Assembly: GCA_947383645.1 (NCBI GenBank)
Contig: CANDEH010000001.1
Coordinates: 16,230 to 80,229, forward strand
Reading direction: 5' to 3'
DNA from: an uncultured Clostridia bacterium
GTDB taxonomy: Bacteria > Bacillota > Clostridia > Oscillospirales > Oscillospiraceae
DNA: 64,000 bases
Below are positions 14,193 to 16,044 of the stretch, piece after piece (position 1 is the first letter of the stretch; each line of letters begins with the position of its first letter). A model generated the notes under the pieces. It was given only the letters and a program-made list of their open reading frames with translations, did no database searches and was not told where the DNA came from. The position numbers and the translations under genes are program-made.

Positions 14193-14689
14193 CGCTTGAA
14201 GACCGCTGACGCTGGGTCTTCAAGCGAGGGGATTTCGCTGCGCTCCATGCACTCGCTTGCGCTCGCACACTCCGCTCCGCGCAGGGTATTTTTTTCGAAA
14301 ACGCGGTTTCCGAAAAAAATGATTTTAGATTATTTCGCGGCGTGCGCGCCGCGAAACTCTGCGAGGCTTTTGTTTGCGGCCTCAGCCGCAAACTTTGCAC
14401 ACGGCGAGGCCGCAGTGCCGTCGCACGCGCCGGAGGCGCTGTGCGCGTCTCGCCCTCGGCAGAGTTTGCGCCGCAGGCGCAAATAAAATGCAATCGTTTT
14501 TCCGGGGACCGCGTCCTCGGAAAAACACTTTGCGGGCCGCGCTCGGCCCGGTCCTTTTTCTCGGGAATCGGCTTTGCCGCTTCCCGAGAAAAAGCCCCCC
14601 GCAGATAAAATCCTCGTTTGAAATCAAAGATTTCAAACGACACCGCCTTTCTCTCGATTGAAAGCCCAGCGTCAGCGGGTTTCAATCGA
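14193..14689. repeat. multi-hairpin array (family 3), double unit in inverted orientation (alpha + beta)
   Basis: About 10 hairpin modules. The terminal hairpins at 14193-14226 and 14654-14689 carry reverse-complementary apices CCGCTGACGCTGG / CCCAGCGTCAGCGGG. The right terminal hairpin contains the murA stop codon. Confidence 0.8.
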
Positions 14690-15928
14690 AATCCGCGCGC
14701 CCAGCGCGGATAAGTCCCCCACGATGTCCTCATAGCCGCGCTGGATGTGGCGGATGGAGCCGACGCGGCTCTCGCCCTCGGCAGAGAGGGCCGCCACCAC
14801 CATGGCCGCGCCGCCCCGGAGGTCCGTGGCCTCCACGGAGGCGCCCCGGAGGCGCTCCACGCCGCAGACCACCGCCACCTTGCCCTCTACCCGGATGTCC
14901 GCGCCCATGCGGCACAGCTCATCCACGTGGCGGTAGCGGTTCTCAAAGATGTTTTCCACGAATACGGTGGTACCCCGGCTCTTCAGCAGCGCCGCCATGA
15001 GCACCGCCTGGGCGTCGGTGGGGAAGCCCGGGTAGGGGGCGGTGCGGACGGGGCGGATGCCCCGCAGCTCCCCGGTGCTCTGGAGGCGGACGGCGGTGCC
15101 GGTGCTGTGGATGCGGCATCCCGCCTCGTGGAGGGCGGCGATCACCGTGGAGAGGTGGCGGTAGTCCACGCCCCGGAGCTCCACCTCGCCTCCGGCGGCC
15201 GCCACGGCGGAGAGGTAGGTGGCCGCCACGATCCGGTCGGGCATCACCGTGTACTCCGCGTCGTGGGTGGGGCTCCGGCCCGAAACGGTGACCACCGAGG
15301 TGCCCGCCCCCCGGACCTGATGCCCCATGGCGCACAGGAAGTGCTGGAGGTCGTCGATCTCCGGCTCCCGGGCGGCGTTGAGGATAGTGGTGACCCCCTC
15401 GCAGCCGCAGGCGGTGAGCAGGGCGTTCTCCGTGGCTCCCACGCTGGGGATGGAGAGGGTCAGCTCCCGTCCCCGCATGTCCCCCGTCCGGCAGTGGAGC
15501 CGGCCGCCCCCCTCCTCGATCTCCGCCCCCAGCTGCCGCAGGGCGGCAAGGTGGAGGTCGATGGGCCGGGGGCCCAGCTCGCAGCCTCCGGGCAATGAAA
15601 GCTCCGCCTGGCCGCAGCGGCTGAGGATGGCCCCTAAAAAAATCACCGAGGAGCGCATCTCCCGCATCAGATGGTCCGGGATCTGGCAGCAGGTCATAGC
15701 GGAGGCGTCCACCACCAGATCCTCCCCCGCCCAGTCCGCGCGGCAGCCCAGCTGCCGCAGAATTCGAATGGAGGCGTCCACATCCCGCAGACGGGGGCAG
15801 TGGTGGAGCACGGACACGCCGCTATGTAGAATGGTGGCGGCCAGGATGGGGAGCACGCTGTTCTTGGCCCCCTGCACCTGCAAGCTCCCCCGCAGGGGTC
15901 TGCCGCCTTCGATCATAAACTCTCCCAT
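14672..15928 (-). CDS. murA: UDP-N-acetylglucosamine 1-carboxyvinyltransferase
   Basis: Full-length MurA (GAKNSVLPILAA, active-site region, C-terminal LGARI). Confidence 0.95.
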   Translation of the reverse strand: MGEFMIEGGRPLRGSLQVQGAKNSVLPILAATILHSGVSVLHHCPRLRDVDASIRILRQLGCRADWAGEDLVVDASAMTCCQIPDHLMREMRSSVIFLGAILSRCGQAELSLPGGCELGPRPIDLHLAALRQLGAEIEEGGGRLHCRTGDMRGRELTLSIPSVGATENALLTACGCEGVTTILNAAREPEIDDLQHFLCAMGHQVRGAGTSVVTVSGRSPTHDAEYTVMPDRIVAATYLSAVAAAGGEVELRGVDYRHLSTVIAALHEAGCRIHSTGTAVRLQSTGELRGIRPVRTAPYPGFPTDAQAVLMAALLKSRGTTVFVENIFENRYRHVDELCRMGADIRVEGKVAVVCGVERLRGASVEATDLRGGAAMVVAALSAEGESRVGSIRHIQRGYEDIVGDLSALGARISIETR

Positions 15929-16004
15929 AGGTTCCCTCCGCAGTAGAATTTCCGAAAAACTACTCCATCCTATGCAGAGGTCCCCAATTTTGCTATGCCC
16001 GCTT

Positions 16005-16044
16005 CAATTCCTAATTTCTAATTCCTAACTCCTAATTCCTGATT
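16005..16044. repeat. solo AATTAGG-heptamer arm (family 2)
   Basis: Plus strand reads CAATTCCTAATTTCTAATTCCTAACTCCTAATTCCTGATT. The murG codons ..R N * (AGG AAT TAG) lie inside it. Confidence 0.75.

Follow-up and report, generated by a model that had tools for sequence, protein, structure and literature searches.

Stop-carrying hairpins and heptamer arrays anchored at the ends of genes in an Oscillospiraceae genome and in other bacteria

Results

Repeats coincide with stop codons in a 64-kb window

The window analysed here is a 64,000-nucleotide (64-kb) stretch of contig CANDEH010000001.1 from an uncultured Clostridia bacterium, and it carries three kinds of short repeat that overlap or abut the stop codon of the gene upstream: arrays of a 7-nt unit, (AATTAGG)n; a hairpin of 35-36 nt, which we call family 3; and an AT-rich hairpin followed by CAAAAGAAC. 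The overlap of these repeats with stop codons is real at the nucleotide level. The elements are anchored at stops, the anchoring is strand-polar, the position is inherited with compensatory changes, and the proteins that end there are not shortened. The reading that we favour, tentatively, is that hairpins resembling the repetitive extragenic palindromes (REPs) and bacterial interspersed mosaic elements (BIMEs) of other bacteria, together with the heptamer arrays, may act in the messenger RNA at the place where the ribosome terminates. The three kinds are not among the RNA families described in Rfam, which gave zero hits over the whole window at gathering thresholds; permissive scans of 14100-16100 and 61100-63400 returned sub-threshold chance hits only.

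Genes of the window, whose G+C content is 63% and whose G+C periodicity at third codon positions (GC3) is strong, were assigned from GC3 and Pfam, and each cited gene end was then read in the sequence. An initial annotation of this DNA had named nine genes with a repeat at or over the stop, and all nine ends check out: murA, mraY, murG, cbiK, a DUF2284 gene and hemL stop inside an element, and the elements at hemA, rubrerythrin (rbr) and dhaK start at most 2 nt from the stop or overlap it. Among 26 stop-facing repeat or hairpin blocks, a list curated by hand and post hoc, 10 overlap the stop or lie within 3 nt of it, as against 1.44 expected for uniform placement in free intergenic space (P about 1e-7). 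Two cases absent from the initial annotation are an array directly after the stop of a sigE-like gene (4755) and a terminator hairpin that begins 1 nt past the stop at 2869. Enrichment at stops, a check that the annotation had proposed, was examined in the window, in GTDB genomes and in viral contigs and found in all three. Each of the three families has built-in stops, in keeping with the earlier remark that such elements carry stops in many frames. An assembly artefact was ruled out; the same arrays or hairpins occupy orthologous sites in the independent assemblies L001, L005, L127, L129, L131 and L134 (comparison loci are given L numbers throughout).

Heptamer arrays supply the ends of murG, cbiK and a DUF2284 gene

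The heptamer arrays consist of AATTAGG units with AGTTAGG and AATGAGG variants. AATTAGG occurs 17 times in the window against 2.7 expected, and Tandem Repeats Finder (TRF) reports tandem repeats of period 7 and 3.6-5.6 copies at 16006, 39729, 39795, 61155, 61291, 63321 and 4769, all of which are heptamer arrays by period and copy number. Since every unit holds a TAG, three units stop all three frames. A solo array of five AGGAATT-type units (16006-16044, minus strand) supplies the final AGG AAT and the stop TAG (16032-16034) of murG, a Glyco_transf_28 gene (16032-17234, minus strand) with the tail ..VVGLIRN*. The palindromic element at 39729-39826, of the form (AATTAGG)n-spacer-(CCTAATT)n, provides AAT TAG (39821-39826) from its right arm to the DUF2284 gene on the minus strand, and the right arm of a second palindromic element (63198-63345) provides AAT TAG (63340-63345) to cbiK, also on the minus strand. 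As first annotated, all three genes close with AAT TAG of the first AATTAGG unit and their proteins end in ..N*. A third palindromic element (61155-61323) occupies the whole space from the hemA stop (TGA 61322-61324) to the ribosome-binding site (RBS) of the next gene (ATG 61139), its array at 61291-61323 overlapping the hemA TGA by 2 nt. An array of another type, (GAGATAG)n or (GAGnnnn)n (GAGCTAA GAGTGGA GAGATAG...; 4755-4799, plus strand), follows the TGA of a sigE-like gene (4752-4754) at a distance of 0 nt.

RNA folding gave -50.9 kcal/mol (z -7.8) for 39729-39826 and -75.7 kcal/mol (z -5.7) for 61155-61323, and the solo murG array is without predicted structure (z -0.7). Terminal inverted repeats around a short non-coding interior, as in miniature inverted-repeat transposable elements (MITEs), are present in all three palindromic elements, and the interiors of the copies at 61155-61323 and 63198-63345 are 94% identical within 2 kb. 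No direct repeat flanks any of the three as a target-site duplication, and the junctions of arrays in GTDB genomes show no consensus.

Orthologous tails were compared for murG, murA, mraY, hemL, hemA and cbiK, the DUF2284, rbr and dhaK tails being left out. MurG proteins at 87-99% identity end ..L[IV]RN*. That of L001 (86%) ends ..LVR*, its AGA TAG coming from another array, (AGATAGG)5, that occupies this site and shares its unit type with the array at 4755-4799, and murG of L123 (77%) has no array and ends CTG GTG CGC TGA. The array thus gives murG its Arg codon (AGG or AGA for CGC), sometimes an extra Asn, and its stop. Because the window sequence that follows the array (T GAAGCGGG, TGAAGC) matches the native TGA and its flank in L123 (TGA AGCAGAGG), the array separates the last sense codon from the old stop. 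Units at this orthologous site vary in number and type (AATTAGG x5, x4 and about x2; AGATAGG x5), and although a conserved murA leader of 75-95 nt is kept in the murG-murA spacer, the array is nevertheless found at the stop in four lineages.

The hem comparisons were built on contigs retrieved through hemL homologues (a metagenome scan with hemC gave two short loci), and the hemA and cbiK tails had a single comparator each, L132, with which both are equal in length. The hemA tail reads AHSR* as against AHTR* in the relative, its last codon is AGG where L132 has CGC, and the 25-nt spacer between hemA and the next gene in L132 is gone in the window. With L123 and L132 as the relatives compared, the last sense codon of murG (16038-16040) and of hemA (61325-61327) encodes Arg in every case, the codon being the rare AGG (AGA in L001) before an array and CGC without one. 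The array appears to have absorbed the last Arg codon of both genes synonymously.

Family 3 hairpins contain the stops of murA and mraY

The gene murA (14672-15928, minus strand; EPSP_synthase fold, 418 amino acids, tail ..LGARISIETR*) has its TGA (14672-14674) in the loop GCTGACGCTG of a 13-bp family 3 hairpin (TCGATTGAAACCC-GCTGACGCTG-GGCTTTCAATCGA; 14654-14689, minus strand), and its codons TCG ATT GAA ACC C form the 5′ arm. The TGA of mraY (18751-19743, minus strand), at 18751-18753, belongs to the 5′ arm of the homologous hairpin (18724-18758). Both placements agree with the initial annotation. The tail ISIETR* is of the native type, relatives having ISLEED*, ISLEA*, ISLEPC* and IRLEE*. 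Moreover, orthologous hairpins stand at the same murA site in L127 (89% identity) and L129 (93%) and show compensation: A-T is exchanged for C-G and T-A for G-C, and the coding changes between ATT, CTT and CTG are mirrored in the non-coding arm. The murA-ftsQ spacer measures 500 nt in the window, 155 nt in L127 and 225 nt in L129, versus 31 nt in L123, which lacks the hairpin. For mraY, the tail is RYAFA* in the window and RFAFA* in L127, both with the hairpin, and RYIV* in L123 without it.

Family 3 as a whole combines a stem of 13 bp (TCGnnnnAnnnCC...) with an apex that does not vary, CC-GCT(G)WCGCYG-GG, and it occurs in five copies in 64 kb, with further copies in L129 and L107. The murA copy belongs to a mosaic of about 10 hairpins that fills the murA-ftsQ spacer, and in the rest of this mosaic (14192-14653, minus strand) family 3 recurs in inverted form at 14192-14227, 19 nt ahead of the ftsQ start; the mraY copy is part of a three-hairpin mosaic 3′ of that gene (18635-18758, minus strand). 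Two more copies open mosaics on the plus strand, one (33548-33582, mosaic 33548-33739) 17 nt past the stop of a livF-like gene, which is untouched, and the other (52655-52689, mosaic 52655-52852) 2 nt past the rubrerythrin stop, the TAG ending at 52652 and the hairpin beginning at 52655. The four copies that follow a gene are all oriented alike with respect to it. Over seven aligned copies, 91% of cells are paired and two-sided changes affect 9 of the 13 stem pairs, a result equalled by none of 500 shuffles. The built-in stops are a TGA at arm positions 6-8 and a TGA in the loop variant GCTGACGCTG.

In copy number and length, family 3 corresponds to REP/BIME elements (imperfect palindromes of 20-40 nt in many copies), and the colinear modules that trail it at 14192-14689, 18635-18758, 33548-33739 and 52655-52852 correspond to BIME mosaics. 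It is not strictly extragenic, the murA and mraY copies covering the last 2-5 codons and the stop. The GTAG or CGTC end tag was not found in the family 3 alignment, whose copies start TCG.. and finish ..CGA (CCA../..TGG in L107), and no gene for a RAYT protein (TnpA-REP) was present among the Pfam-annotated open reading frames (ORFs) of the window. Nor is the murA copy an intrinsic terminator, the sequence after it, GAGAGAAAGG, having neither a U-tract nor the end of a transcription unit. G-U wobble was uninformative as an indicator of the hairpin strand, with one case each way.

In L107, a family 3-type hairpin adjoins a heptamer array. Because of this pairing the three families are best seen as co-occurring modules, so that their description as unrelated in the initial annotation holds for their sequences and not for their occurrence. 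On the antisense strand the invariant apex reads CAGCGAAGC and includes GCGAAGC (at 14654-14689, in other copies and at 5222-5256 of L107), which we take to be an unusually stable DNA mini-hairpin sequence; were this so, family 3 might work as single-stranded DNA, not RNA. Relatives without the elements that the window has at murA and mraY were also seen to carry, at different junctions of the dcw cluster, hairpin mosaics or an AT-rich hairpin (6792-7000 of L123, in the ftsW-murG spacer, and 810-915 of L001). Between close lineages, then, the mosaics turn over or change place.

An AT-rich hairpin closes hemL and overlaps the stop of dhaK

The third family, ACTTTTTCT-TGAA-AGAAAAAGT followed by CAAAAGAAC, has its built-in TGA in the TGAA loop and is found at the dhaK stop and in the hemL tail. 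The dhaK copy (GACACTTTTCT-TGAA-AGAAAAGTGTC, then CAAAAGAAC; 1269-1303, plus strand) overlaps the dhaK stop by 2 nt, the TGA lying at 1268-1270 and the hairpin proper at 1269-1294. At hemL, the element (54723-54771, minus strand) comprises the hairpin TACTTTTTCTTT-TGAA-AAAGAAAAAGTA (54744-54771) and a tail, CCAAAAAGAAAAC, both of which are traversed by the last 16 codons (some 14 in the initial annotation, which had recognised the overlap) before the TGA at 54723-54725. In HemL relatives at 90% and 83% identity the protein ends ..SFS* and its TGA falls within the TGAA loop of this hairpin; the hairpin is missing from an 82% relative, which ends ..FAAL*. Set against L131 and L134, the window hairpin has one extra T and one extra A, one in each arm, and its stem is one pair longer. 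This compensated 1-bp expansion puts the loop TGA out of frame, so that HemL runs on to the next TGA and is 12 residues longer in the window than in all relatives.

By these comparisons the murA and hemL hairpins are old and orthologously kept, with compensatory changes, and they are not recent insertions. The C-termini were compared with those of orthologues, as the initial annotation had proposed: to judge from the tails aligned, the proteins are not truncated, the last 0-3 residues being replaced and length being kept to about one residue, with HemL (+12) as the exception.

Heptamer arrays face stops in many phyla and in viral contigs

To place these arrays in a broader setting, we turned to GTDB genomes and IMG/VR contigs. 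The exact 20-mer AATTAGGAGTTAGGAATTAG occurs in more than 117 GTDB representative stretches of 35-69% G+C from at least 10 phyla (Cyanobacteria, Bacteroidota, Bacillota, Acidobacteriota, Planctomycetota, Chloroflexota, Campylobacterota, Verrucomicrobiota, Pseudomonadota and others), always within arrays that mix AATTAGG and AGTTAGG units. Of 62 (ARTTAGG)n arrays with a same-strand gene upstream according to a crude gene caller, 39 begin in the interval from -20 to +6 nt around the stop, as compared with 11 in the 27 nt beyond it (p = 9e-5). In 23 cases the array itself supplies the upstream gene's stop, and among donated stops the shortest extension is the commonest (12:4:2). Domains were found by Pfam in 9 of ten array-closed ORFs, which resemble ordinary full-length enzymes and transporters, and in the clearest of them the domain models reach to within a few residues of the end. 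For example, an array-closed hisD matches positions 3-411 of a 411-position profile and ends its match at residue 432 of 435, and the C-terminal domain of an array-closed DrrA is matched in full (81/81), ending at residue 303 of 305.

The polarity of the arrays is marked. Paired arrays are ordered AATTAGG..CCTAATT in 53 instances and in the reverse order in none, the inverted partner lying downstream each time. On their purine-rich 5′ side, solo arrays have a stop at most 6 nt away in 20 of 35 cases, as compared with 6 of 38 on the 3′ side (Fisher p = 2.7e-4). In IMG/VR, 21 viral stretches carry AATTAGGAGTTAGGAATTAG arrays; of 24 instances there, 21 have the 5′ side turned towards a stop, and about 60% lie within 6 nt of it. 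A test of register was not significant, native stops 0-6 nt upstream being in unit register in 4 of 16 cases versus 2.3 expected. Interiors of paired arrays are not conserved between genomes. A literature search on AATTAGG returned nothing relevant, and the polar anchoring of heptamer arrays at stops across phyla is the part of which we found no earlier description.

In other phyla the inverted partner of an ARTTAGG array is often built from another unit. Other heptamers (GAGTGAA, AGTGTGA, CCAATTA, CTCCTCA, ACTGTTC, AGACYACA) were seen in the same intergenic regions of L006, L011, L012, L021, L028, L032 and others.

Genomic context and other repeats of the window

According to Pfam, the window begins with dhaK and dhaL, followed by spoIIGA and the sigE-like gene, a dcw cluster on the minus strand (mraZ, rsmH, ..., murF, mraY, ftsW, murG, murA, ftsQ, ftsZ), a liv-type ABC operon, ldh, two DUF2284 genes, rbr and, on the minus strand, a tetrapyrrole cluster (cbiK, a TP_methylase gene, hemA, a precorrin-2 dehydrogenase-like gene, hemC, cobA/hemD, hemB, hemL). 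Its closest named protein relatives are from Flavonifractor, Pseudoflavonifractor and metagenome-assembled genomes (MAGs) of Oscillospiraceae, and the source genome is a member of the Oscillospiraceae, kin of Flavonifractor and Lawsonibacter.

The window also contains a composite repeat of 180-320 nt (D1, D3, D4; 2900-3085, 4826-5140, 42320-42642 and 48616-48831) with the ends TCAGMYTGTCRAAAAA and inverse. All copies lie within a hairpin or terminator, and on either side of each copy the hairpin concerned is directly duplicated (2876-2899 and 3086-3109; 4807-4825 and 5141-5159; 42309-42319 and 42663-42673; 48604-48613 and 48847-48856), and the composite resembles a MITE whose targets are palindromes, 10-24 nt or more of the target being duplicated. 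A (TTCTGG)n tandem repeat (51800-51914, minus strand) forms a small ORF for an Asn/Gln-rich peptide of about 38 residues (MDKNQNKNQNQNQ...KK*), which has a good RBS and lies just upstream of a DegV gene. Repeats of 54 and 33 nt inside a flotillin (SPFH) gene (49293-49448) probably encode coiled-coil repeats.

Discussion

A role at the site of translation termination

The best-known precedent for palindromes at this position is found in E. coli, where 260 of 496 REPs lie within 15 nt of a stop and such REPs stall the terminating ribosome (Liang, Rudd and Deutscher 2015, Mol Cell 58:431, as cited in PMC12306157); protection of the upstream 3′ end, tuning of translation and separation of cistrons have been shown for E. 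coli REPs at most 15 nt from a stop. The elements described here may act in a comparable way. In favour of this count the anchoring at stops in the window and elsewhere, the polarity of the arrays and of family 3, the full length of the proteins that end in arrays, the maintenance of the hairpins by compensatory changes and the position of the murG array at the stop in a spacer that offered room elsewhere. Each kind stands flush with the upstream ORF, so that the stop codon is part of the element (first unit, 5′ arm or loop), and a terminating ribosome would have to melt the 5′ arm or cover the first units. The structure would re-form once the ribosome had left and could then protect the 3′ end of the upstream cistron, adjust how it is translated and set it apart from the cistron that follows, and the built-in stops would allow an element to sit on the ORF boundary without a longer protein. 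As in E. coli REPs and BIMEs, we find short palindromes that are 3′ or intercistronic, mosaics of hairpin modules and a large share of copies near the upstream stop. The likeness has its limits, however. The sequences are different and lack the GTAG or CGTC tetranucleotide that, according to PMC3733652, is conserved at one end of REPs; the stop lies inside the hairpin loop or 5′ arm, so that the arm is coding; and it is the apex that is conserved, with the stem free to vary.

Several observations weigh against a role tied to termination. The solo murG array is unstructured, so that a hairpin mechanism cannot cover every case. Some copies stand off the stop, by 17 nt at livF, 16 nt at ftsZ, 25 nt at rsmH and 42 nt at livK, and others lie 37 nt (SLH gene) or 58-61 nt (TetR and flotillin genes) away. 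Outer ends of elements also abut start codons or RBSs, for example between hemA and the next gene, which a purely termination-linked role does not predict and space-filling or compaction does. Among start-facing arrays, the 5′ end is within 20 nt of the start of a divergent gene in 23 of 54 cases. The strict polarity of paired arrays is equally expected of the terminal inverted repeats of a mobile element, and palindromes can hold their arms matched through templated repair without selection. Finally, gene calls in loci other than the window are crude, being made from long ORFs and GC3.

Clipping, compaction and targeted placement

A first alternative, which we regard as rather unlikely but not negligible, is that the repeats are neutral or selfish and that their clipping of gene ends is tolerated. 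Deletion bias and microhomology would remove the spacer, fusions would survive through the repeat's immediate stop, and the repeat may also spread into last codons where changes are synonymous or harmless. The presence of stops in all three families fits this explanation well, as do elements that abut both a stop and the next RBS (at hemA the 25-nt spacer of L132 has been lost), the change of the last Arg codon from CGC in relatives to the AGG or AGA of the array unit in murG and hemA, and the dominance of the shortest extension among donated stops (12:4:2). The family 3 arm consensus TCG CTT GAA GAC translates as S-L-E-D, near the native murA tail SLEED, which would fit a homeologous fusion, and modules are gained and lost rapidly between relatives, as the murA-ftsQ spacers of 31, 155, 225 and 500 nt illustrate. 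Yet solo arrays are polar (20/35 versus 6/38) even though CCTAATT arrays also stop all frames; the native post-stop TGAAGC.. survives after the murG array, hence no spacer was deleted there; and hairpins are kept with compensatory changes across 7-17% protein divergence. The initial annotation had posed a choice between insertion targeted to the end of translation and tolerance of stop-carrying elements. The overlap and the built-in stops on which that choice was based are borne out, but strand polarity and retention with covariation argue that tolerance alone is insufficient.

Targeted or generative placement is, in our estimate, more doubtful still. Here a mobile element or a repeat-adding process would set the 5′ end at the junction of last codon and stop or, more loosely, at ORF boundaries. 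Such a process would account for within-a-codon precision at natural C-termini in many phyla, for the strict end polarity (53:0), for the nearly identical interiors (94%) of two elements within 2 kb, at 61155-61323 and 63198-63345, for the native TGAAGC kept directly after the murG array and for the same arrays in phage or prophage contigs, and a neighbouring repeat family of the window, D1, is clearly insertional, lying in hairpins with flanking duplications. Against it stand the lack of a target-site duplication or target consensus at array junctions, the unconserved interiors between genomes, the variation of unit type and number at the murG site, which resembles turnover in place, and the vertical inheritance of the murA and hemL hairpins; moreover, no transposase or other enzyme could be tied to the elements from these data. 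Comparison with MITEs such as Correia and RUP points both ways. The window elements share with them palindromic units of 100-170 nt, inverted ends of about 30 nt, a non-coding nature, near-identical copies and the capacity to alter gene ends, but they lack target-site duplications, their ends are tandem arrays of variable unit number, their interiors are unconserved between genomes and many copies are solo arrays. It is worth noting that action at the terminating ribosome, clipping with compaction and targeted placement are not mutually exclusive.

It is very improbable that we are dealing with common intrinsic terminators, or with target sites of a repeat-triplet RNA-binding protein already known (HutP, for instance), that merely happen to lie after genes, for although some elements lie between convergent genes, the palindrome 39729-39826 is followed by UUUUAAAG on the DUF2284 transcript, and the UAG triplets of (AAUUAGG)n have the 4-nt spacers of the HutP model RNA (PMC2425495), most copies are operon-internal without a U-tract (murG-murA, murA-ftsQ, mraY-ftsW, hemA-next, cbiK-next) and their downstream genes need transcription, separate canonical terminators exist in the window (for example 2871-2910, 39665-39697 and 54122-54156), and HutP sites are single regulatory leaders, not dispersed cross-phylum 3′-end repeats. 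For the operon-internal copies intrinsic terminators were ruled out, there being no U-tract and genes following; the hemA and cbiK elements are followed by an RBS and the next gene. HutP binds UAG triplets with 4-nt spacers (PMC2425495). A site of the HutP type has three NAG triplets so spaced, in two clusters 12-17 nt apart, and goes with a HutP gene; of these features the triplet spacing is seen in the array sequence. The arrays share with HutP and TRAP sites the UAG triplets, the 4-nt gaps, at least three repeats and single-stranded RNA flanking a hairpin. The resemblance is in spacing only, known sites being single leaders of specific operons, and it may serve as a lead only.

Relation to other heptamer repeats and a broader possibility

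TAACTGA heptamer arrays have been described from Beggiatoaceae, Cyanobacteria and Bacteroidetes, with function unknown (MacGregor 2015, PMC4679880); they carry three-frame stops, lie mostly just upstream of starts and in 13 sets overlap an upstream stop (PMC4679880). Papers on Nostoc and Geobacter likewise report heptamers near starts as possible regulators. Arrays of the present type resemble these repeats (the LSSR/STRR class) in their 7-nt units, copy numbers from 2 to 40+, intergenic location, forward three-frame stops and patchy distribution among phyla. They differ in their unit, ARTTAGG or GAGATAG, whose core TAGGAR is a stop overlapping a Shine-Dalgarno-like AGGAG; in their location, mostly at stops instead of just upstream of starts; in the common pairing of ARTTAGG arrays with an inverted array in fixed polarity; and in their occurrence also in Bacillota, Acidobacteriota, Planctomycetota, Chloroflexota, other phyla and viral contigs.

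Taken further, and here we speculate well beyond what we think probable, purine-rich stop-carrying heptamer arrays (core UAGGAR) could form a pan-bacterial and phage class of element whose 5′ end is set exactly at the junction of last codon and stop by a directional process or a conserved trans-acting factor. Such arrays would be a general, so far undescribed punctuation mark for the end of translation and not a by-product of replication slippage, and the stop-bearing REP-like hairpins of this genome would be a lineage-specific solution to the same task.

Implications

Decades of cataloguing have produced no agreed function for either heptamer arrays or REP-like palindromes. The strand-specific anchoring of the 5′ end, reproducible in this genome, in representatives of many phyla and in viral contigs, provides a concrete and testable handle, and it points to translation termination, separation of cistrons or stability of the 3′ end. 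The findings also bear on annotation: repeats can set the ends of genes, as in the N*/S* tails, the recoded last Arg and the 12-residue hemL extension, and repeat-masking or assembly breaks caused by repeats land exactly on gene boundaries.

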